A stretch of DNA of 64,000 bases from Vulcanimicrobiota bacterium (GTDB lineage: Bacteria > Vulcanimicrobiota > Xenobia > Xenobiales > JADMJV01): assembly GCA_050250895.1 (NCBI GenBank), contig JBFWNU010000002.1, forward strand, positions 887,659 to 951,658. Direction: 5' to 3'. This document shows positions 81 to 12,217 of this stretch, piece after piece. The position numbers were made by a program, and so were the translations under genes. Each line of letters starts with the position of its first letter. The stretch's first letter is position 1. Under the pieces are notes generated by a model. That model ran no database searches. It was given only the letters and a program-made list of their open reading frames with translations, and was not told the DNA's origin.

Positions 81-2003
81 TTACCCCAATAGCGATTTTA
101 TGCACTGATTGAAGTGCTGGTTTTCTCCATTGCAGGAATGGTATGCCTTGGTGAGAGTATAGTAGGTGGACGGATCATCCGGTTCAACCCGTTTATTGTC
201 ATAGTTTCTCACCCACCCAACTTCTTGGGCGAGAACTCTAACACCGATATCTATCTGGACGTCTGGATAAATGACGGAACCTACGTTCTCAGGCTTCTCG
301 AGCTTCTTGCTCGCTTCTATAATCCAGCCGCGGTGCGCGACAATATCAATTTGAAAGAGCCCGACCATGGCTCTTCCCATTTTGAGGTCTTGGTTGTTGA
401 CAATATCCGTGTACCAGAACTTGAGTAGCGACTCGGGCCCCCAGGGCACCAATCGCCCGACGCGGTCGTAGTTTACCTCGGGCGTCGTGCGTGGATCGTT
501 GTAGCGGAAAGAAAAGTTGTCATCCCCTCCTTCAGCATAAATGAGACACCGAATGAACTTTGCCCAGGATTCTTCCTTGCCTTTGAAGACATCGTACTTG
601 CCGATCTCATCTCGGATCATTTTTGCCCAAGCATCGGGCAATGCTGGGACCGCTGAGAGACCAATGGGATCAAATAGACTTACCGGGTCGTTCGATGCGT
701 ATGCGAAGAAATTCGTTCCACCACGAAAACCGGCCGGGTCGCTAGAAATGTACCGTCCCAATGAGGTATCGTAATGACGCCTACGCATATAGAGCAGGTT
801 GGTGAGTGCCGAATCATCGTGAACGCCCAGTCCACCAACGAAGGTCTTCGGACTAGAGCCCGAACCAGTCTTGGTCTGCTCACCGAACTCGAGATATTCG
901 TATGCCGCCACTTCGTCGCCGCTGGCGTCCACCACCACCCGAACCGAAGACAAGCCGTCGGTCAGCAGGTAGAAGAAGTCGCCACCGCTCTCGAAGCCCA
1001 TCAACTGGTGGCCCATCAGGTAGTTGAACTCCACGGGTGAGCCAACCGTAGGCGTCTCCACCTCGTTCAATGTCGGCAAGCCCGAGTAGAAGCTCTCGGC
1101 CACCGTCTCGTCGTCGAGGATCTTGGCCTTGCGGATACCGCCGGCATCGTAGGTGTGCAGCACCTTGGTGTCGGCAGGAGAAAACGCCACCCGAATCAGG
1201 TTGTCCTGGTCGTCCCAACGATAGGCGATGGTGTCGCTGGTGGCCGCGTCGGTCCGCAGCGTCATGTTGCCATCTAGGTCATGGTCGAACGTCTCCTGGT
1301 CGGAGAAGTCGCCCGGGGTGCGCGATTGGAAGGTCGAGGTCACCTGGACCTTGGTGATCTGGTCGGCCGCATCGTAGAGATAACGGTAGGTCTTGGAGTT
1401 GACGTGGTCGTCCATGAACGTGCGGTTGTCGGACTCGTCATACTCGTAGACGCGCTGGGTCAAGAGACTGCCGGCGCCGATCTTCTTCTTGACCGTGGTC
1501 AGCCGGTTGAGCCAGTCATAGTCGTATTCCCAGCGCACCGGGTCAGCCGTGCCGGAGGTCGAAATCATGGCGGTGCGGTTGCCCGCATCGTCATACTCGT
1601 ATTCCAGCTCGAGCACGTTGTCGAAGCCGCTCATGCCGTCGTCTTTGAGATAGCGCAGGTTGGTCAGCTGGCCGTTGGCGTTCCAGCCGGCCCCCGTCGG
1701 CCCAGCGGCGCCGACGCGCAGCGTCGGAAGGGATGATGGGAACGACGCCTTCCGTCCAGTTTCGCGTCGTGGCCATGCGTTCTCATCATTCCGTAGAGCC
1801 GCGACCGGGTCGACGGTCATCAGGTTGGGAGTCATGGCACCGTCGTCGAACCTGGCCTCGATACCCGTCGAACTGGGATAGACGATCTTCTCGAGGCGGC
1901 CGCCGGCATCGTAAGTATAAGTGAACACCCGGTCGGCCTGGCTGGGCCGCTTGACGGTCACTTCGTAGAGCCGATTGTCGTTGTAGTAGCTATACTCCGT
2001 CAC
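81..2003 (-). CDS. RHS/YD-repeat protein (5'-truncated orphan module) with C-terminal lysozyme/lytic-transglycosylase-like toxin domain
   Basis: YD repeats (YDAGGRL, YEYDDAGNR, YDWLNRL). RHS core YMRRRHYDTSLGRYISSDP...YASNDPVSLFDPIGL. C-terminus has LIYAEGG / GLFQI / AYH motifs. Confidence 0.85.
   Translation of the reverse strand: MTEYSYYNDNRLYEVTVKRPSQADRVFTYTYDAGGRLEKIVYPSSTGIEARFDDGAMTPNLMTVDPVAALRNDENAWPRRETGRKASFPSSLPTLRVGAAGPTGAGWNANGQLTNLRYLKDDGMSGFDNVLELEYEYDDAGNRTAMISTSGTADPVRWEYDYDWLNRLTTVKKKIGAGSLLTQRVYEYDESDNRTFMDDHVNSKTYRYLYDAADQITKVQVTSTFQSRTPGDFSDQETFDHDLDGNMTLRTDAATSDTIAYRWDDQDNLIRVAFSPADTKVLHTYDAGGIRKAKILDDETVAESFYSGLPTLNEVETPTVGSPVEFNYLMGHQLMGFESGGDFFYLLTDGLSSVRVVVDASGDEVAAYEYLEFGEQTKTGSGSSPKTFVGGLGVHDDSALTNLLYMRRRHYDTSLGRYISSDPAGFRGGTNFFAYASNDPVSLFDPIGLSAVPALPDAWAKMIRDEIGKYDVFKGKEESWAKFIRCLIYAEGGDDNFSFRYNDPRTTPEVNYDRVGRLVPWGPESLLKFWYTDIVNNQDLKMGRAMVGLFQIDIVAHRGWIIEASKKLEKPENVGSVIYPDVQIDIGVRVLAQEVGWVRNYDNKRVEPDDPSTYYTLTKAYHSCNGENQHFNQCIKSLLG
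1694..1816. repeat. 123-bp nested palindromic element inserted in frame in the RHS gene
   Basis: Terminal arms ccgtcggccc (1694-1703) and gggtcgacgg (1807-1816); inner arms atgatgggaacg / cgttctcatcat; hairpin ccgacgc-gca-gcgtcgg. Encodes a non-RHS-like peptide. Confidence 0.55.
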
Positions 2004-3011: not shown

Positions 3012-4403
3012 TCAGGCACGCACTAGCAAGAAGCGCTCGAGTTCGTCCAGCGAGGTCTCGCCCTGAGCGGCTAGCGCGAGGGTCTGGGTCTCGAGGTCAG
3101 AGGGCTCGAATTCGCCCTCGAAGACCCGAGCAGTGAAAGGCAGCGACTCGGCCAGCAACACGCGGCCGCGATAGCCGCTCTGCTGGCAACGGTCGCAGCC
3201 CACGGCCCGGCGAAATTCGCGAGGCAGGGAGAAGTCTACCCGTGCCTGCAAGCTCTCGAACTCGGCCTCGGACAAAGGCTGGGGCTGGCTACAATGGGGA
3301 CACAGCTTGCGCACGAGTCGCTGCACCAGGATGAGTTCCACGGTCTGGGCCAGGGCGCGCGCCGAGCCAGCCAGCACCGACAGGCGAGAGAAGACGTCGC
3401 GGCAGTCGCGGCCGGCCATGCCGGCCACCACCAGGGCGCCGCGCAGCGCGGCCGTTTGAGCGGCCTCGAAGGCCTCGGGGTCGGGCAAGGCGGCTAGACC
3501 GATCACGTCGGGGTCGCTGCGCATCAGGGCTCGAAGGGCCGAGGCTTGGCTGCGGTTGGCTCCGGTCACGCTGGCCAGACTCACCTGGGTGGCCCAGGGT
3601 AGGGTCAACCAGGCCGGGTTCTCGATGGTCATCAGCTTAAGGTTGGGGCCGGCCACTTCGCCCAGGCAGGCGGCCAGCAACGAGTCGCGGCTCTCGTCGC
3701 CGGCGATGATGACCAGGCGGGCTCGCTTGCGCAGAGCCTGGCGCAAGCGAGCCAGGTCGACCTGGCGCAGGCCGAAGGTGGAAAGATCGGGCTGGCTCTG
3801 GTCGCGGTTCTGGAGCTTGACCGTCAGCGTTTCGCCCTGGGCGGACGGCAAGAACGACACGCGCAGGTCGAGTAGACCGCGGTCGGTCTCGACCAGGATG
3901 CGTCCGTCCTGGGGCAGGCTGGTTTCACGCACATCGCAGGCGGCGGCCCGCTTCCACTGTTCAACTAAGGGTGCCAGCAAGCGGTTGTCGAGGCGCGCTA
4001 GCAACTGCAGTTCGCCATCGACGCGGCCGCGTAGCCAGCACTGGCGCTCGGGACCCTGGCCGGTGTAGCAGCGGCCAAGATGAAGACTGTCGGCCTGGCG
4101 CTCGAGGGCCACTTTGAGCATGCGGTTGAAGGCGTCGAGCAGGGGGTCGGCCGTCCGTGGGGGCGGCCCGGCCAGGAGCGACTCGAGCTGGTCGAGGAAG
4201 GGACCAGGGTCGGCCAGCAGGTCGATGTGGGGCGCTTGGCCGCGCAGGAAGCGGTCGAGTTCTGCTCGCTCGAAACGCCACTGGCGCCCGATCTTGCGAG
4301 CCGACAGCCGGCCTTCTCGCAGCCAGCGATAGAGGGTGTTACGGGTAGTGTTGAGGGCCTCGGCGGCCTCGGCCATGGTGAGCAGATCCTCTTTCATGTG
4401 CAT
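3012..4403 (-). CDS. Excisionase-type HTH fused to a GspE/PilB-like ATPase domain with degenerate Walker motifs
   Basis: N-terminal LLTMAEAAEALNTTRNTLYRWLREGRLSARKIGRQWRF. PilB motifs LPQDGRI, DLRVSFLP, RSDPDVI, QRLVRKLCPHC, GCDRCQQSGYRGR. Confidence 0.8.
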   Translation of the reverse strand: MHMKEDLLTMAEAAEALNTTRNTLYRWLREGRLSARKIGRQWRFERAELDRFLRGQAPHIDLLADPGPFLDQLESLLAGPPPRTADPLLDAFNRMLKVALERQADSLHLGRCYTGQGPERQCWLRGRVDGELQLLARLDNRLLAPLVEQWKRAAACDVRETSLPQDGRILVETDRGLLDLRVSFLPSAQGETLTVKLQNRDQSQPDLSTFGLRQVDLARLRQALRKRARLVIIAGDESRDSLLAACLGEVAGPNLKLMTIENPAWLTLPWATQVSLASVTGANRSQASALRALMRSDPDVIGLAALPDPEAFEAAQTAALRGALVVAGMAGRDCRDVFSRLSVLAGSARALAQTVELILVQRLVRKLCPHCSQPQPLSEAEFESLQARVDFSLPREFRRAVGCDRCQQSGYRGRVLLAESLPFTARVFEGEFEPSDLETQTLALAAQGETSLDELERFLLVRA

Positions 4404-4668
4404 AGTGTATCATAGTTATATTGATGCGCTAAGTGATATTTGGACTAGGGCCAGTCCCCCGGTCCGCTCGTCGACAAACCCGATTCCAGGCCGCCGCCAA
4501 AGACATTCCGGGCCAGCTTCAGCCTTTCAGAGTTTTTTCCGGGGGCGCGAATAGACTCTTCCACAGGTGAAAGAAGCGCGGGCCATGCGTTTTCAGGATC
4601 CTTTAATTCGATTCAGATAAATGTTTCAAACGAGAGTGCCACAACTCGTTAACTGTAGGAGGACTTGG

Positions 4669-7605
4669 ATGGATACCATCAACGCTCACGGCAACAACTG
4701 GAATATCAGAGGAACCTTCCCGAAAGCGGCGCCGGCGGCTTCTAAAGCCGTTTCCACGGTTCCGGGTGATCAGGTGTTCTTGAACTCGAACACCCACGCG
4801 GCCGCCTTGAGCATCCCCACCACCTTGCCCGTGACCAGCAAAGCTGCTGTAGTGGCGGCCCCGGTCGCACCCGCCGGTCCTCCGGTCAACACGGCTGCCC
4901 CCATCACGATGGTGGTAGAAGGCCCGACGGCGCCAACCAATAGCGCCGCCATGTCGGCCCCGGCCCCGGTGCTGCGCGCCGCGGCCACCCAGTTTGATGC
5001 CGTCGAGATCATCGATGCCGAGAGCGATGACGATTCGGTCTGGATTCCCTCCGCCTCCGCCACTCTGGTGAACACCGCCAACACCCTCGAGAATCTGAGC
5101 AAGCTGGCCGCCGCGGTCAACTCGAAAGAGTTCACCCTGCTCACCGGCGAAACCGGCGCCGGTAAGACCGCGCTGGTCAAATACCTGGCCCACATGACCC
5201 GCAACCGTCTGCGTCAGGTCAACATGCACGACCAGACCGACGAGGTCGAACTCTTCGGCGGTTATAAGCCGGCTCCCGATGGTGGCTTCGTGTGGCGCGA
5301 CGGCACCATTACCTCGGCCGTCCGCAACGGTCACTGGCTGCTGCTCGACGAGATCAACCTGGCCGACCAGGCGGTGCTCGAGCGCATGAACCCGCTGCTC
5401 GACGGTGAGGGCCACATCGTGCTCACCGAGAAAGAAGACAAAGAGCGGGTCAAAGTTCATGGTCGCACCCGCGTCTTCGCCACCGAGAACCCGGCCAGCT
5501 ACGCCGGCCGTAAAGAGCTGTCGGCGGCGATGTTCGACCGCTTCCAGCGCAAGATTTACATGCGGCGTCTGCCCGACACCGAACTCAACGAAGTGCTCAA
5601 GAAGGACTTCTCGGCCTCCCTGATCGTGGGCAAACTGGGCGAAAGCTTCCCTGACCTCGACAAAGAAACCAAGTCGGTTCTGCGCGGCAACGTGCTCAAC
5701 AGCCCCGAAGCCGTCACCCCCACCTCGGTGGTGGCCCTCGAAGCCGCTTTCGGTAACAGTGACAAGAACGCTCTCAAAGAGCTGCACCGCCAGTTCGCCG
5801 CCAATCCGAGCCTGGATGCGATGCCCATCGCTCCTAAAGCCAAACAGGTGCTGGAAGCCTTCCAGGGTATCCTGGCCAAGCCGCCGGCTCCCGTCATTAA
5901 CGACAAAGTCTTGTTGCAGATGTCGATTCTGCACAACGAGATGGTCAAAGCCTCCGAAGGCCGCGTAGTCGGTAAGAAGGGCGGTCCTTACCCATTCACC
6001 TTGCGCGACCTGCTCAAGCTGGCCAAGCGCATCAAACACTACAGCGAGGTGAGCCCCGAGCTCAACCAGTTCCAACTGGCCTGGCAGCAGGCCCGCGACA
6101 TCTATCGCGAGCGTTTCATGGAAGAGGCCGACCAGCAGACCGTCGAGCACTTCTTCCAGCTTTCGTTTGGTGACCCCAGGGTCAACCGTGACGGCGCTCC
6201 GCCCGAAACCAACGCCTCCATCACGATGGAGAGAATTGGCAACAAGATTCGTATCGGCGATACCAGCCTCGAGATCAATCCCCACGGCGGCGATTATGTC
6301 CCCGATGCCAGCGCCAAGCTGATTTCTACCCCCGGTACGGTCAAGAAGCTGACCCGTCTGGCCCGCGCTGCTGCCCTCGACGAGCCGGTGCTGCTGGTGG
6401 GACCGACGGCTGCTGGTAAGACCTCACTGGTTCGCTGGCTGGCCCACGAGACCAATAACGAGTTCCGCCGCGTCAACCTGAGTAACCACACCGATACCAG
6501 CGAGCTGATCGGCGGCTACTTCCCGGCTGTCGAAGTCGACTTCGACAAAGCCAACACGGCCATCAAAGCCATCGAAGGCAACGCCGATTTGAGCAAGCGC
6601 TTCCAGGCCACCCTGGACAAGATGGGCGACGAGGTCAAGAAAGGCGTCGAGATTCTCAAGAGCAATCCGAGCCTCGAGGGCGACGCTGCCAAAGAAGCTC
6701 AGAAGACGGTCCGCGACGCCCTCGGCCGTATCCTCGGCGACGACCAGTTGCGGGTAGCCTTCGAAGACCTCGAAGACACGGGCGCCGAGTTGCGCAACGG
6801 TCTGGAAGGTTCGTTCCGCACCGTGCCCGGTAAATTCGAGTGGCGCGACGGTATCATCATCGAAGCCATGAAGAAGGGTCAATGGATCGTCCTCGACGAG
6901 ATCAACCTGGCCGAGCCGGCTGTGCTCGAGCGCCTCAACTCGCTGCTCGACAGCGACCGCGCCGTGGTGCTCACCGAGCACCTGGGCGAGCGCATTAAAG
7001 CCGACTCGCGTTTCCGAGTCTTTGCCACCATGAACCCGGCTACCAACGACTACGGCGGACGTAAAGAACTCTCGCCGGCGATGCGCAACCGCTTTACCGA
7101 GCAGTGGTTCCCAGACATCAACGACCGCTCCGAGATTCTCCATATCGCCAATTCCTGGGTGGAAGACTTCAAGAGCGACGCTCAAGAGTATCTCAAAGGC
7201 TTCGATGCCAACACCGCCAGTCGGGAAGACAAGCTCAAAGCCCTGTCCGCTCAAGCCTTCTTGAAAGAAGACACCAGCCGGCTGGCCGAAGCCGTTACCG
7301 ACTTCCAGATCACCATCCGGGCCAAGGCCAAGCGGCAGAACGGGCAGACTCCCGAGTTGCCCACCGCCAAAAAGGACGGTTATCACTACACCTTGCGAGG
7401 AATGCGGGCCTGGCTGAAGTATATCAAGAATAACGTGGGACGCCCGATGCAGAACCCCGACGACCCGAAAGACCGTTCGCTGCGCAAAGACCTGAAAACG
7501 GTTTTCAACGAAGGCGTCGAAGGTTACTACGTGGACGGCCTATCGCGAGCTGAAGATCAGCAGACCGTGAAGTCCCTGGGCGAAAGCCTGGCCAACCGAC
7601 TGTAG
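4669..7605 (+). CDS. Tandem two-module AAA+ ATPase of the MoxR/dynein/midasin clade (midasin-like)
   Basis: RBS AGGAGG before ATG 4669. Two Walker A motifs (GETGAGKT, GPTAAGKT), two LDEINLA Walker B motifs, FATxNP sensor 1 and GRKELSxAMxxRF arginine fingers. Confidence 0.9.
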   Translation: MDTINAHGNNWNIRGTFPKAAPAASKAVSTVPGDQVFLNSNTHAAALSIPTTLPVTSKAAVVAAPVAPAGPPVNTAAPITMVVEGPTAPTNSAAMSAPAPVLRAAATQFDAVEIIDAESDDDSVWIPSASATLVNTANTLENLSKLAAAVNSKEFTLLTGETGAGKTALVKYLAHMTRNRLRQVNMHDQTDEVELFGGYKPAPDGGFVWRDGTITSAVRNGHWLLLDEINLADQAVLERMNPLLDGEGHIVLTEKEDKERVKVHGRTRVFATENPASYAGRKELSAAMFDRFQRKIYMRRLPDTELNEVLKKDFSASLIVGKLGESFPDLDKETKSVLRGNVLNSPEAVTPTSVVALEAAFGNSDKNALKELHRQFAANPSLDAMPIAPKAKQVLEAFQGILAKPPAPVINDKVLLQMSILHNEMVKASEGRVVGKKGGPYPFTLRDLLKLAKRIKHYSEVSPELNQFQLAWQQARDIYRERFMEEADQQTVEHFFQLSFGDPRVNRDGAPPETNASITMERIGNKIRIGDTSLEINPHGGDYVPDASAKLISTPGTVKKLTRLARAAALDEPVLLVGPTAAGKTSLVRWLAHETNNEFRRVNLSNHTDTSELIGGYFPAVEVDFDKANTAIKAIEGNADLSKRFQATLDKMGDEVKKGVEILKSNPSLEGDAAKEAQKTVRDALGRILGDDQLRVAFEDLEDTGAELRNGLEGSFRTVPGKFEWRDGIIIEAMKKGQWIVLDEINLAEPAVLERLNSLLDSDRAVVLTEHLGERIKADSRFRVFATMNPATNDYGGRKELSPAMRNRFTEQWFPDINDRSEILHIANSWVEDFKSDAQEYLKGFDANTASREDKLKALSAQAFLKEDTSRLAEAVTDFQITIRAKAKRQNGQTPELPTAKKDGYHYTLRGMRAWLKYIKNNVGRPMQNPDDPKDRSLRKDLKTVFNEGVEGYYVDGLSRAEDQQTVKSLGESLANRL

Positions 7606-7621
7606 GGCCTTGGAGGCATCG

Positions 7622-10600
7622 ATGAATAACATCTCCGCGAATACACCCCAACCGCCCCAGCGGCGGGCGGCCATCGGCTCGGTCACGGCCAACCTCAACA
7701 AATCGGGCGCGACCAGCCCGGGCCAGACCGACACCGTTCACCTGGCCGGTAGCTGGTGGAACAAGATCTTCGGCAAGGAAGAGCAACCGGCTCAGCCGGC
7801 CCCTCCGGCCCAGAACAATACCCCGGCTCCCGCCGGTCCGGCCCAACCGGCTCCGGCTCAGCCGGCACCTGCTCCCATTCCCACCCCGCCCAAGGGCGGC
7901 GCCAAGCCGACCGACGCCGAGGTGACCAAGCAGGTGCGCGACCGCTTGCAGCAGATCGAGGCCGTGGCCAAGACCATCGGCGGCGACATGGGGACCACCG
8001 TGACCGCCGGCGACGAGTGGAAGCACACCTTCCATCCCGACGGCTCGCACGAGATCACCATCCGCCAGCAAGACCTGGTGGACAAGAGCGAAAACTACGC
8101 CATCGGCAAGGTGCTGGGCGAGGCTGCCAAAGCTCGCTACTCGCACTGGTCGGTGGACCAGCAGCACGCCCAGGACGAAGGCTACATGTACCTGCAGAAC
8201 TCGGTGGAGACGGCTCGCACCGGCGAGATCCTCTCCAGCCGCCTGCCAGGTGCTCCCACCTTCATGGACGATGTCTACGAGCAAGACCTCAAGCACCCCA
8301 CCGAGTGGTATCAAGAGCGCATCGCCGACAAGTTGATGCGCGAGGCCGAAGGCAAGCTCACCCGTGAACAGGCCGAAGCAGTGGCCGCCCAGGTCGGTTC
8401 TAAAGTTCCCAAGCACGTCCAATACGGCAACGGCGTCATGCACAACTGGTTCTATGGCGAGAAAGATCCCGCCATGGATGCCGATGTGGCTAACGCTTTC
8501 GACCGCACCAAGGGTGATATCGAGCAAGCCTACAAGATCAAGCGTTCGGCCCTCGAGCGCGACCTGACCCCGGTCGAGATCAAAGAGCAGGCCGAAGAGT
8601 CCTCGAAGATCGTGCGGGAGAAGCTGTGGCCCGAGTACCAACGTCTGGTCGAACAAGACATCGCCGATTTGTCCAAGGCCCTCCAGGGCGAGCAGAGCCC
8701 CGAGCAGCAGGCCAACCAGAATCAGCAGTCGGGTCAGTCGGGTCAATCCGGCCAGTCCGGGCAGTCGGGCGAGATGAGCCCCGAGCAGATGGCCAAACAG
8801 CAGCAGATGCAGCAGCAGAAGCAGCAGGACGCCAATCAGAATCTTTCCCAGGCTGGCCAGCAGATGCAAAAAGCCGGCCAGAAAATGCAGCAGAGCCAAC
8901 AGCAGAACGGCCAGCAGGCCGGTCAGCAGATGGAGCAGGCGGGCCAGCAGATGCAGCAGGCCGGCCAGCAGCAGGGCAAACCTGACGCCAACTCTCTGCA
9001 GCAGGCCGCTCAAAATATGGAGCAGGCCGCTAACCAGATGCAGCAGATGGGTCAGCAGCAACAGCAGATGACCCCCGAGCAGATGCAGCAGATGGCCGAT
9101 CAGATGAAGGCCCAGCAGGGGATGCAGAATGCCGCCCAGCAGGCCATGCAGCAGAACCCCGGCGCCGTCGAGCAGGCCGCCAATCAGGCTCTCGACCAGA
9201 TGAAGAATAATCCTGACATGGCTCGCTCGATGCAGCAGTCGATGACTCAGGAAATGCAAGATGCGATGCGCAACAACCCCGAGATGGTCGAGCGCGCCAT
9301 GGAACAGCTCCAGCAGAACCCCGAGCTGATGAAGAAGGCCATGGAGCAGATGCAGCAGATGCAGCAGGATAATCCTGAGATGCAAAAGCAGATGCAAGAG
9401 CTCCAGCAGCAGATGCAAAAGGACCCGGCCAAGGCCCAGGAGCAGATGCAGAAAATGGCCGAGCAGATGCAGCAGAACGCTCAGATGAAAGAGCAGATGC
9501 AGCAGATGCAAAACCAGATGGCCAACGATCCGCAGAAGGCCGCCGAGCAGATGCAGCAGCTGGCCGACCAGATGCAGCAGAATCCCGCCATGAAGGACCA
9601 GATGCAAAAGCTCGCCGAGCAGATGCAGAAGGACCCTCAGGCGGCTCAGCAGCAGATGCAACAGCTGCAAGAGCAGATGCAGCAGAACCCGCAGATGGCC
9701 GAGCAGATGCAAAAGCTGGCCGAGCAGATGCAGAAAGATCCGCAGGCCGCCCAGCAGCAGATGCAGCAGATGCAGGATCAGATGCAGCAGAACGCTCAGA
9801 CCAAAGAGCAGATGCAGCAGCTGCAAGAGCAGATGCAAAAAGATCCGGCCAAGGCTCAAGAAGCCATGCAAGAGCTCGGCAAGCAGATGGAGCAGAACCC
9901 CGAGCTCAAGAAGCAGATGCAGCAAGCCATGTCCGAGGCTCTCCAGAAAGATCCTCAGGCTGCCCAGCAGGCCGCCGAGAAGATGATGGACGACCCGGCC
10001 ATGCAGCAAGCCATGCAGAACGCCATGAAGAACAATCCGGCGATGCAGCAGGCGATGCAGGATGCTTTAAAAGACAACAAGCAACTGCAAGACGCGATGA
10101 GCCAGCAGATGCAGAACAACCCCGACCTGATGAAACAGGCCGCGGAGCAGATGCAGAAGGATCCCGCCGCCGCCCAGCAGGCCATGGACCAGCTCAAGGA
10201 CCAGATGACCCCCGAGCAGCAGCAGGCCATGCAGCAGGCGATGGAACAGGCCAAGCAAGACCCGGCCAAAGCCGCCGAGGCGATGCAGCAGGCCATGGAG
10301 CAGAACCCCGAGCTCAAAGAGAAGATGCAGCAGCAGATGCAGCAGCAGATGCAGCAGCAGCTCAAAGACAATCCCGAGCTCGCCAAGCAGGCCATGGAGC
10401 AGCTCAAAGACAACCCGGCCATGCAGAAGGCGATGCAAGAAGCTCTGCAGGACGAGCTCAAGAAGAATCCCGAGGCCCTCAAGAAAGCCGCCGAAGAACT
10501 CGAGAAGAACCCCGAGGCCAAGAAAGCCGCCGAGGAGGCTCTCGAAAAGCAGCTCAAAGAGAATGGTCAGCCCGAAGAAGCCAAGCAGGGCAAAGCCGGC

Positions 10601-12217
10601 GAGCAGTCTGAAGAAGACAAAGCCAAAGAAGGCGGCAAGGGCCCCAAGATGCCCAACATGCCGAACATCCCCGGCATGCCTCCGATGGGCCAGAACGACA
10701 ACAAGGACGCCAAAGAAGCTGGCGACAAGATGAAAGAAGCGGCCGACGCGATGAAAGAGGCCGCCCAGAATCCCGACAAAGCCGGCGAGAAGATGCAAGA
10801 AGCCGGCAAAAAGATGCAAGAAGCCGGCAAGAAGCTCGAAGAGATGGGCAAACAGTCCGGCGACAAAGAGATGGAGCAGGCCGGCAAAGACATGCAGCAG
10901 GCCGGCCAGGAGATGCAAGAGGCTGGCGAAAACCAGCAGCAAGCCGATGGCCAGCAAGGCGAAGGCCAGCAGGGTGAGGGCCAGGAAGGTCAGCAGGGTC
11001 AGCAGTCGGGCAAGCCCGGTCAGCAGTCCGGCAAACCTGGTCAGCCCGGTCAGCCCGGTCAGCAGGGTGGCGAGCAGGGCGGGGAAGGTCAGCAGTCTCA
11101 GGGTGCTGAGCAGACCGGCCAGAACCCGCCTGCCAAAGACCTGCCCAAGATGAGCGAAAAAGAGGCCAAAGAGCTGGCTGAGAAGATCATGCAAGAGCTC
11201 GACAAAGACCTCAACGAAAAGCTCGAGACCGAACAGAAAGACGCCCGCCGCGAAGAAGGCGAGAAGGCTCAGGACCAGCGCGACATCCAGAAATCGCAGG
11301 CCCAGCCTCCCCGCGAAGACATCGGCAACCAGCGCACCAACGGCCAGTCTCAGGGCGGCTCGACCTCAGAGATCGACCTGGCCGACCTGGAAGATTTGGT
11401 CCGTCAGAAGCAAGACCTGGCTGCCAAGTTCGAGGCCATTCAGACCGATTACGACAAGTATCATATGAACGTGGCTCCGATGGCCGACGAACTGGCCGGC
11501 GAGCTCTCTAACTTCCTCAACGAGAACACCCGGCCCAAGTATGAGCACACCACTCACAAGACCGGCAAGAAGTTGAGCATCAAAGCGGCCATGCGCAGCG
11601 AAGCCAACTATGAGCGCACGGGCGTGTGGGACCCGGACGTGTGGTTGCGTCGTACCAACCCCAGCAAGCGCGGCCACAAGTTCATGTTCGTGATGGACGA
11701 GTCGGGCTCGATGGGCTCGAAGGGCGACCCTAAGTGGGACAACTCCATCAACGGCCTGATCATGGGCGGCGAGGCCCTCGAGTCGCTCGACATCGAGTTC
11801 GGCATCGTCGGCTTCTCGGACCGGCCCCTGGTTCACAAAGAACTGCACGACAAATATCCCGAGAAGCGCCAGGCGATTCTGGCCGACATCGAGCGGGCCC
11901 CTCACGGCTCGACCAACGACTCGGCTGGTATCCGCACCGCGATGGAGATGATCGAAAAAGGCGCCGACCCTGAAGATGAAAAGGTCATCATCGTGCTCAC
12001 CGACGGTGAGGGCGATACGGCCGGCGTCAAGAAACTGCTCGAGGAGGCCCGCGAGAAGAAGATCCACATTATCGGCGTGGGCATCGGCCCCGGCACCGAC
12101 TTCGTCAAGCAGGTCTATGAGCACCACATCGTGGTCGAGAAGCTCGAGAACCTGCCCATCGAACTGGCCGAGCTGATTCAAGAGCGCATCGAAGGCGAAT
12201 CGAGCGAGTTCTACTAG
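7622..12217 (+). CDS. Large vWA/MIDAS protein with degenerate metallopeptidase-like N-domain and Q/M-rich repeat stalk
   Basis: RBS GGAGG. MIDAS elements DESGS, GSTND and VLTDG. About 800 aa of Q/M/E/K-rich helical and G/Q low-complexity sequence. Confidence 0.9.
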   Translation: MNNISANTPQPPQRRAAIGSVTANLNKSGATSPGQTDTVHLAGSWWNKIFGKEEQPAQPAPPAQNNTPAPAGPAQPAPAQPAPAPIPTPPKGGAKPTDAEVTKQVRDRLQQIEAVAKTIGGDMGTTVTAGDEWKHTFHPDGSHEITIRQQDLVDKSENYAIGKVLGEAAKARYSHWSVDQQHAQDEGYMYLQNSVETARTGEILSSRLPGAPTFMDDVYEQDLKHPTEWYQERIADKLMREAEGKLTREQAEAVAAQVGSKVPKHVQYGNGVMHNWFYGEKDPAMDADVANAFDRTKGDIEQAYKIKRSALERDLTPVEIKEQAEESSKIVREKLWPEYQRLVEQDIADLSKALQGEQSPEQQANQNQQSGQSGQSGQSGQSGEMSPEQMAKQQQMQQQKQQDANQNLSQAGQQMQKAGQKMQQSQQQNGQQAGQQMEQAGQQMQQAGQQQGKPDANSLQQAAQNMEQAANQMQQMGQQQQQMTPEQMQQMADQMKAQQGMQNAAQQAMQQNPGAVEQAANQALDQMKNNPDMARSMQQSMTQEMQDAMRNNPEMVERAMEQLQQNPELMKKAMEQMQQMQQDNPEMQKQMQELQQQMQKDPAKAQEQMQKMAEQMQQNAQMKEQMQQMQNQMANDPQKAAEQMQQLADQMQQNPAMKDQMQKLAEQMQKDPQAAQQQMQQLQEQMQQNPQMAEQMQKLAEQMQKDPQAAQQQMQQMQDQMQQNAQTKEQMQQLQEQMQKDPAKAQEAMQELGKQMEQNPELKKQMQQAMSEALQKDPQAAQQAAEKMMDDPAMQQAMQNAMKNNPAMQQAMQDALKDNKQLQDAMSQQMQNNPDLMKQAAEQMQKDPAAAQQAMDQLKDQMTPEQQQAMQQAMEQAKQDPAKAAEAMQQAMEQNPELKEKMQQQMQQQMQQQLKDNPELAKQAMEQLKDNPAMQKAMQEALQDELKKNPEALKKAAEELEKNPEAKKAAEEALEKQLKENGQPEEAKQGKAGEQSEEDKAKEGGKGPKMPNMPNIPGMPPMGQNDNKDAKEAGDKMKEAADAMKEAAQNPDKAGEKMQEAGKKMQEAGKKLEEMGKQSGDKEMEQAGKDMQQAGQEMQEAGENQQQADGQQGEGQQGEGQEGQQGQQSGKPGQQSGKPGQPGQPGQQGGEQGGEGQQSQGAEQTGQNPPAKDLPKMSEKEAKELAEKIMQELDKDLNEKLETEQKDARREEGEKAQDQRDIQKSQAQPPREDIGNQRTNGQSQGGSTSEIDLADLEDLVRQKQDLAAKFEAIQTDYDKYHMNVAPMADELAGELSNFLNENTRPKYEHTTHKTGKKLSIKAAMRSEANYERTGVWDPDVWLRRTNPSKRGHKFMFVMDESGSMGSKGDPKWDNSINGLIMGGEALESLDIEFGIVGFSDRPLVHKELHDKYPEKRQAILADIERAPHGSTNDSAGIRTAMEMIEKGADPEDEKVIIVLTDGEGDTAGVKKLLEEAREKKIHIIGVGIGPGTDFVKQVYEHHIVVEKLENLPIELAELIQERIEGESSEFY
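9350..9990 (+). repeat. Coding tandem repeat of about 6 x 35 aa (105 bp), unit QMQQNPxMxEQMQKLAEQMQKDPQAAQQQMQQLQE
   Basis: Period visible in the translation as alternating NP/DP helix breaks. Boundaries approximate. Confidence 0.75.

Follow-up and report, generated by a model that had tools for sequence, protein, structure and literature searches.

Midasin (Rea1/Mdn1), the closest described relative of the protein reported here, combines six AAA+ modules in one polypeptide with a helical linker domain, an N-terminal domain (NTD), a D/E-rich linker and a VWA domain bearing a metal ion-dependent adhesion site (MIDAS), all in cis. PMC6286127 describes alpha-helical bundles in AAA2L, AAA4L and AAA6L of Rea1 that extend the helix-2 (H2) beta-sheet; the bundle of AAA2L (AAA2L-H2alpha) occupies the pore, and its deletion raises ATPase activity 10-15 fold. 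Each large domain is reported there to be tightly packed on the preceding small domain, with the NTD replacing the missing AAA6S. Six-module midasin has been placed early in eukaryotic evolution (PMC3495828). More distant counterparts are the MoxR-VWA pairs (NorQ-NorD, CbbQ-CbbO and RavA-ViaA), in which an AAA+ protein with a helix-2 hairpin is encoded beside a VWA/MIDAS gene and forms single-module homohexamers with six identical short hairpins; for NorQ-NorD, PMC13036017 describes a VWA finger that reaches the helix-2 inserts through the pore. Here we describe a two-gene midasin-like system in a 64,000-nucleotide stretch of the genome of a Vulcanimicrobiota bacterium (contig JBFWNU010000002.1, positions 887,659 to 951,658; the window). 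Its ATPase has two modules, of which only the second carries a predicted helical bundle, at the site used by the even-numbered modules of midasin, and the VWA domain resides on a separate partner protein encoded immediately downstream.

The ATPase gene (4621..7605, plus strand) has an open frame of 994 residues. Its likely start is the ATG at 4669, which gives 978 residues, because AGGAGG lies 8 nucleotides upstream of it and relatives begin MDTI there; residue numbers below are counted from window position 4621. Pfam assigns the frame to AAA_5 (E 2.5e-51) and AAA_lid_7 (E 2.7e-9). In a phmmer search against all PDB chains, Mdn1 (E 4.7e-160) and Rea1 (E 8e-152) are by far the best matches among solved structures, followed by NorQ at E 4e-10. 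Judged by its sequence, the protein belongs to the midasin family, and its similarity to the MoxR proteins is far weaker. No NCBIfam model scored above its curated cut-off, the best being GvpN with 71.9 bits against 266.8 required. The phrases bacterial, prokaryotic and archaeal midasin returned no paper in the literature searched, where 'midasin-like' and 'midasin homolog' matched eukaryotic studies; Garbarino and Gibbons 2002 and Iyer et al. 2004 may mention bacterial relatives.

The large ATPase domain of module 1 (5059..5604, residues 147-328), which matches our domain profile continuously with 251 bits, has a Walker A motif GETGAGKT (5146-5169, residues 176-183) and a Walker B motif (5338-5358, DEIN from residue 243). 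That of module 2 (6313..7188, residues 565-856) has Walker A GPTAAGKT (6400-6423, residues 594-601) and Walker B (6886-6906, DEIN from residue 759). Each is followed by its own lid on the same plus strand: lidA (residues 423-564, 155 bits with its profile), which together with the connector to module 2 spans 5887..6312, and lidB (residues 857-994, 7189..7602, 79.9 bits). We aligned 39 two-module proteins, namely the window protein and 38 from a protein search; seven proteins of 799-928 residues were left out (P0095, P0098, P0100, P0104, P0106, P0112 and P0115), six of which look like fragments of longer midasins in which an incomplete module precedes two complete ones. The alignment is invariant at Walker A and Walker B, at the NP motif of sensor 1 and at two arginines in each module (GRK and D/NRF), in line with the statement of a first-pass annotation that the Walker motifs and arginine fingers of both modules are intact. 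Both nucleotide sites are thus complete in their motifs, a point on which the protein differs from midasin, and both may be catalytically active.

The two modules differ sharply at helix 2. In module 1, five residues (APDGG) separate GGYKP (213-217) from FVWRDG (223-228) in a short hairpin (5257-5304), whereas in module 2 a total of 103 residues (636-738, nucleotides 6526..6834) lie between GGYFP (631-635) and FEWRDG (from 739). Since this is an indel, chance is not the issue in deciding that the insertion is real. An AlphaFold2 model of residues 130-994, run as a monomer with the 39-protein alignment, has a mean predicted local distance difference test score (pLDDT) of 87.4 and a predicted template modelling score of 0.81. 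In module 2 it places six helices (model 512-600, with pLDDT of 82-94 by block) between two long strands (502-510 and 603-614), which are themselves flanked by a short helix (497-500) and a further helix (616-623), the latter followed by the Walker B strand (626-630; all in model numbering). Module 1 is modelled with the same topology and a short hairpin (strands 84-88 and 94-98) that interrupts helix 2 just before the Walker B strand, and module 2 modelled alone has an identical layout (pLDDT 87.7). Because the six helices lie between the hairpin strands, the insertion forms, in these models, a bundle of helices that caps the helix-2 hairpin of module 2 at its tip. The contrast of 5 with about 103 residues that the first-pass annotation had pointed out is exact to the residue in the translation, and its description of the insertion as helical and within helix 2 agrees with the model. 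Its background statement that the even-numbered modules of Rea1/Mdn1 have long helix-2 insertions and that the one in AAA2 regulates the pore is also borne out by PMC6286127.

Foldseek ranks Rea1 entries first for the two-module model, followed by dynein. The whole model superposes on Rea1 with a root mean square deviation (rmsd) of 16 and does not indicate a best-fitting module pair, the comparison being confined to chains of up to 3000 residues and so leaving aside full-length Rea1. For the core of module 2, the best superposition is on NorQ (Z 21.2, rmsd 2.2, 180 residues aligned). Among the 50 entries listed, with 901 chains aligned, the coverage of module 2 (296 residues) does not exceed 190 residues in any chain, and the helical bundle is therefore without a structural match there.

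The position of the insertion was compared with midasin by means of a large-domain profile of 201 columns, built from 15 short bacterial relatives and run over six eukaryotic midasins. In all six proteins the match to modules 2, 4 and 6 breaks at profile positions 73-78, and that to modules 1, 3 and 5 is continuous; relative to the profile, the extra residues at the helix-2 site number 90-119 in module 2, 11-71 in module 4 and 87-114 in module 6, as against 0-3 in the odd modules. Module 2 of the window protein is split at position 79, so that its insertion falls where the profile is interrupted in the even modules of midasin. One way to explain this is common descent: the helical insert would be an ancestral mark of even modules, shared by inheritance with those of midasin, the protein would have kept the odd-even unit that was triplicated to give the midasin ring, and the short bacterial relatives would have lost the insert. 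Besides the site itself, this explanation can draw on the module 2 model, whose best match within Rea1 is residues 1338-1591 of 6hyp (Z 16.4, rmsd 3.1, 184 residues aligned, 38% identity), a segment that we read as AAA4, and on the short bacterial forms, in which the hairpin of module 2 is often 8 residues longer than that of module 1.

The lids add to the same side. The sole Pfam family matched by isolated lidA is AAA_lid_7 (E 1.6e-10). In two midasins, AAA_lid_7 covers three stretches, the best of them after module 5, while the lid behind module 2 is matched by AAA_lid_5 and that behind module 4 by MDN1_4th. By these matches lidA is clearly of the midasin odd-module type. For lidB of the window protein, the only Pfam match at a threshold of E 0.1 is DUF5394 (E 0.091, 12.6 bits, below the family cut-off), and among six relatives the module 2 lid is matched slightly better by AAA_lid_5 in three and by AAA_lid_5 only in one, clearly better by AAA_lid_7 in one, and by neither in one. 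Pfam thus appears to discriminate this lid poorly, and its resemblance to even-module lids is weak. The bacterial lid profiles match 14 eukaryotic lids, all 14 in a manner consistent with an odd/even correspondence: the six odd lids score best with the module 1 lid profile and the eight even lids are matched only by the module 2 lid profile, although the 14 represent five orthologous groups and not 14 independent trials. In a lid tree of 86 rows, from which lids with fewer than 11 bits or 70 profile columns were dropped, the odd lids of six-module proteins group with the module 1 lid (15/15; Shimodaira-Hasegawa-like approximate likelihood ratio 91), and 9 of the 11 even lids are placed beside that of module 2 (81). 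Contrary to the profile scores, the eukaryotic module 3 lids fall with the lidB group in this tree, with a weak support of 81.

The trees of the large domains are less favourable. Identity between modules 1 and 2 is 50%, compared with 29-49% between either of them and any midasin module, and each bacterial module forms its own clade across 19 proteins (100/99 and 98/97); the recent local duplication that the first-pass annotation had raised against its own proposal does not fit these values. The odd and even modules of six-module prokaryotic proteins likewise separate into distinct clades (99/94 each). The best tree comprises 104 large domains (with the truncated P0123 and P0202 kept outside the trees), and in it a 99/98 branch parts eukaryotic modules 1, 3 and 5 from everything else, and so sets both bacterial modules with the eukaryotic even modules, against what descent from a common odd-even pair would lead one to expect; the two bacterial modules are joined to each other weakly (67/34) and may be sisters. 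When all odd modules were held together, the cost was 7.7 log-likelihood units, which the approximately unbiased (AU) test did not reject (p-AU 0.208), and the same held for module 1 together with the prokaryotic odd modules (7.9 units, p-AU 0.196). Outgroup trees with MoxR and single-module relatives, for one of which twelve proteins were thinned out, set the eukaryotic odd modules nearest the root; long branches were flagged in them, and we draw no rooting from them. The evidence from sequence for a correspondence of modules 1 and 2 with odd and even midasin modules is thus mixed: the grouping that had been proposed as a check is not recovered in the best tree, survives the AU test, and is neither rejected nor demonstrated.

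The distribution of the insertion also bears on its origin. Among the 39 two-module proteins, the module 1 hairpin has 0-5 extra residues in every case. The module 2 hairpin has 1-8 extra residues in 22 proteins, 91-99 (the helical insert) in eight and 40 (an unrelated insert) in five; an SH3-like insertion a few residues downstream adds about 63 residues in three proteins, and in P0042 it is joined by a further 65 or so to give about 128. There are thus at least four kinds of insertion in module 2, and within the two-module family only the hairpin region of module 2 is elaborated, a rule that is new here. In the tree, the four included carriers of the helical insert group together (100/99 for module 1) inside a clade of nine rows (100/99) to which the short-hairpin proteins P0008, P0010 and P0012 also belong. 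In a survey of the phylum the gene occurs in 13 of 121 genomes. Only the window genome and one other of the same genus have long frames, of 994 and 977 residues; the frame of a genome of the same family has 723 residues and the rest have 697-924. The helical insertion is therefore present in only two of the 13 carrier genomes. When an alignment of the inserts was compared by hhalign with the inserts of midasin modules 2, 4 and 6, only 7-15 flanking core columns were aligned.

Because the insert is nested among short-hairpin relatives and has no detectable similarity to the midasin inserts, it was probably gained within one Eremiobacterota-type subclade, in convergence with midasin and not by inheritance from a common source. 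An insert that is derived in one subclade and unlike those of midasin can therefore not be read as the heritage of a common odd-even ancestor. Shared descent would require many independent losses to leave the insert in a nested subclade alone (8/39 proteins), and it has to accommodate other subclades with unrelated insertions at or near the same place; we regard it as improbable. The proposal of the first-pass annotation, that the protein matches the two-module unit from which a midasin ring could be assembled, accordingly stands in part: membership in the midasin family, the shared insertion site and the odd-type lidA speak for it, and the ATPase-domain tree and the derived state of the insert speak against it. 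What appears to be new is a helical cap at the midasin even-module site that was gained independently.

The second gene of the system (7610..12217, plus strand, 1535 residues) starts 4 nucleotides 3′ of the ATPase gene. It encodes a metallopeptidase-like N-terminal domain of about 250 residues (7907-8644), which aligns with relatives and six-module giants, a repeat linker of 945 residues (8645-11479), and a VWA domain (11480-12214; Pfam VWA, E 2.1e-14) with the MIDAS motif DESGS (11696-11710). The linker is rich in Q (26%), A (12%), M (10%) and E (10%) and has a net charge of -50, and its DNA consists of 21- and 105-nucleotide tandem repeats, corresponding to repeats of 7 and 35 residues. In a scan of species genomes that yielded 30 loci, ten had a two-module gene, and the partner lies directly 3′ in all nine with downstream DNA; the tenth (L020) stops at a contig edge. 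We found no conserved third gene, the neighbours differing among loci (thymidine kinase with RF1, a Ser/Thr kinase, Hsp90, a histidine kinase). The HExxH motif and the following NAVEDPRVNN motif are intact in the six-module giants and in four short-form partners (L021, L023, L026 and L028), and both are lost in L017, L018, L019 and the window, where the lost site corresponds to 8117-8149 (partner residues 170-180). A complex prediction of module 2 plus lidB with the partner N-terminal domain gave a score of 0.05 against a mark of 0.32, a result that counts neither way on binding.

Some further features of the partners may be recorded. The dead peptidase-like domain seems tied to the subclade with module 2 insertions. 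Partner length also follows the insertion, with 1535 residues in the window (103-residue insert) and 1738 in L018 (40-residue insert), and 756-892 in the five complete short-hairpin partners; the cases are few and related and provide no test of such a link. The partner of L019 is split over two frames. A D-x-V-x-L motif at residues 32-55 of five of ten partner N-termini (window 7610-7760) is similar to one in the ATPase relatives, which begin M-D-x-I and have (P)GD-x-V-x-L/I near residues 32-39 in about 20 of the 38 checked (window counterpart region 4669-4800).

Compared with midasin, the two-gene system has the same kinds of parts in a different arrangement. Common to both are AAA_5 modules with helix-2 beta-hairpins, the midasin-type lid AAA_lid_7, a bundle of helices, predicted in the window protein, at the helix-2 hairpin of a module in even position, and a long flexible, net-acidic linker leading to a MIDAS-bearing VWA domain. 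In the window, however, the ATPase chain has two modules and neither a helical linker domain nor an NTD, the linker and the MIDAS are on the separate downstream protein, and the linker consists of Q/A/M/E-rich repeats. The insert has the site and fold class of its midasin counterparts without a detectable sequence relation, and has a derived distribution; moreover, the host is a bacterium, so that the substrates cannot be pre-60S factors.

The six-module prokaryotic proteins (Omnitrophota-type giants, and P0124 of Thermoproteota) have modules of the same family and, behind module 6, a domain that aligns with the N-terminal domain of the partner and then a VWA domain, the same order as in the two-gene system but fused in one chain. 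They differ in that HExxH is intact, in that most of their modules have insertions near profile position 130, with the helix-2 site used only in module 1 of six proteins, and in a lidB-like domain ahead of module 1. In P0121, P0122, P0241 and P0242 this domain goes together with the lack of a detectable lid after module 6, an arrangement that parallels the NTD in place of the absent AAA6S in Rea1. The MoxR-VWA pairs share with the window the helix-2 hairpins, present in both of its modules, the neighbouring VWA/MIDAS gene and a likely working principle, a ring that acts on a tethered VWA protein (PMC13036017); unlike them, the window chain has two diverged modules, one of which is elaborated.

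The analysis directly supports the architecture of the system, the place and fold class of the insertion, membership in the midasin family, conservation of the partner gene and a derived distribution of the insert. On this basis we suggest a mechanism that we consider, as a whole, somewhat better than an even possibility. Gene 1 would provide one chain in which two MoxR/midasin-class AAA+ modules that differ from each other are each followed by a lid, and gene 2 the parts that midasin has in cis: the N-terminal domain, a flexible linker of great length and a VWA domain with a MIDAS. By analogy with Rea1, three ATPase copies would close a six-module ring with alternating modules, the C-terminal lid of each chain packing on module 1 of the next, and the ring may pull on or twist its tethered VWA partner in the manner of NorQ-NorD and Rea1. 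Three bundles on alternate hairpins would then stand on the hairpin face around the pore mouth, where they might gate or plug that face or offer a docking surface, a convergent role resembling that of AAA2L-H2alpha in Rea1, which acts as an ATPase inhibitor and binds Rix1. This regulatory function of the bundle, as gate, plug or docking platform, is our preferred reading, though one that we hold only tentatively and would not give even chances.

Several points weigh against these proposals. The hairpin tip is a general insertion hot spot, because helix-2 insertions are likewise seen in six prokaryotic giants, where module 1 has 70-78 residues there, and in the single-module relatives of five loci (L029, L033, L038, L039 and L040), with 50 residues each, and the even-module rule is not universal. 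For inserts that are short and helical, a lack of detected similarity says little in favour of separate origins, and in the solved Rea1 structure AAA2L-H2alpha and AAA4L-H2alpha are ordered only in part (PMC6286127). The ring itself is proposed by analogy, and the direction of the bundle relative to the pore is not fixed by a monomer model. In addition, the insert evolves faster than the core, with 32-59% identity within its clade (and 88% with P0001, a protein that is 96% identical), where the flanking core has 70-99%; a decoration under loose constraint would fit this as well.

The main alternative to a gate, plug or dock is an insertion that is a tolerated, largely neutral embellishment of a permissive surface loop, with neither a regulatory nor a docking role. 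The hot spot, seen in several lineages and in different modules, speaks for it, and the fastest-evolving parts of the protein (31-44% identity, against about 70-87% for the core) are the insert and a second, lineage-specific helical insertion between the large domain of module 1 and its lid (5605..5886, residues 329-422). The latter is helical in the AlphaFold2 model, is 31-40% identical to relatives where the core is about 70-80% identical, and is gapped at 93 of its 94 residues in the short relative P0008. On the other hand, the length of the module 2 insert is kept within 7 residues across the clade even where its identity falls to 32-35% and that of the flanking core is 70-82%; its length and predicted helical fold persist down to 55% overall identity; motifs such as LGD..LR..FE and LEG.F.TV are conserved in it; model confidence is high in this part; and the equivalent element of Rea1 has strong functional effects (PMC6286127). 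We therefore consider mere tolerance unlikely and favour a function for the bundle.

The records of the five single-module relatives are labelled as Saccharibacteria, Bdellovibrionales, Planctomycetota and an unclassified bacterium, and in both loci with enough upstream DNA (L029 and L033) a VWA-type open reading frame lies upstream on the same strand. The second insertion is missing from the short relatives and takes a different form in the clade with the 40-residue hairpin insert (P0019 and P0022).

The assembly could also be of another kind, for example a hexamer whose rings are stacked or double, or a joint assembly with other AAA+ proteins of the cell, in which case the odd/even distinction would be irrelevant. 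As the trimer is argued from analogy and the genome is rich in other AAA_5 and MoxR proteins (43 AAA_5 and 12 AAA_3 matches), such partners would be at hand. Yet the ATPase is the sole two-module gene of the midasin-like kind in the genome, there are related single chains of six modules in which the odd modules and lids correspond to module 1 and the even ones to module 2, and the model of the window protein can be laid over dynein AAA2-AAA3 with its two modules as a rigid pair (Z about 23, rmsd 4.0, about 545 residues aligned). An assembly other than a ring of three chains thus seems rather doubtful to us.

Upstream of the ATPase gene, a divergent gene (3012-4403, minus strand) encodes an HTH_17 DNA-binding domain fused to a type II/IV secretion ATPase (T2SSE) domain, and an RHS-repeat protein is encoded farther upstream (81-2003, minus strand). 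A promoter scan gave one promoter-like site, compared with 1.3 in shuffled sequences, and all terminator-like sites were on the minus strand, so that neither kind of site is informative here.

Finally, we note what the system implies for the origin of six-module rings. Two distinct midasin-type modules with lid types of their own and a MIDAS partner still encoded by a separate gene make a plausible intermediate form, and a bacterial two-module chain makes the origin of the six-module ring testable by structure and phylogeny. A bolder idea, which we consider rather unlikely as it stands, is that the two-gene system is a living representative of an odd-even AAA+ pair whose triplication and fusion gave rise to the six-module proteins of bacteria and archaea and possibly to the ancestor of eukaryotic midasin, helical plugs having arisen independently on the even modules of the Eremiobacterota-type lineage and of eukaryotes. 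What can be gained is limited by an insert that is lineage-specific and a deep tree that is unsettled. If the idea is true, a trimer-of-pairs ring inherently frees every second helix-2 hairpin for elaboration. The helical cap confined to module 2 is a natural, small and probably tractable analogue of the auto-inhibitory plug of Rea1, and the ATPase, with about 110 kDa and two modules that are active by their motifs, should be far easier to work with than the 550-kDa midasin.

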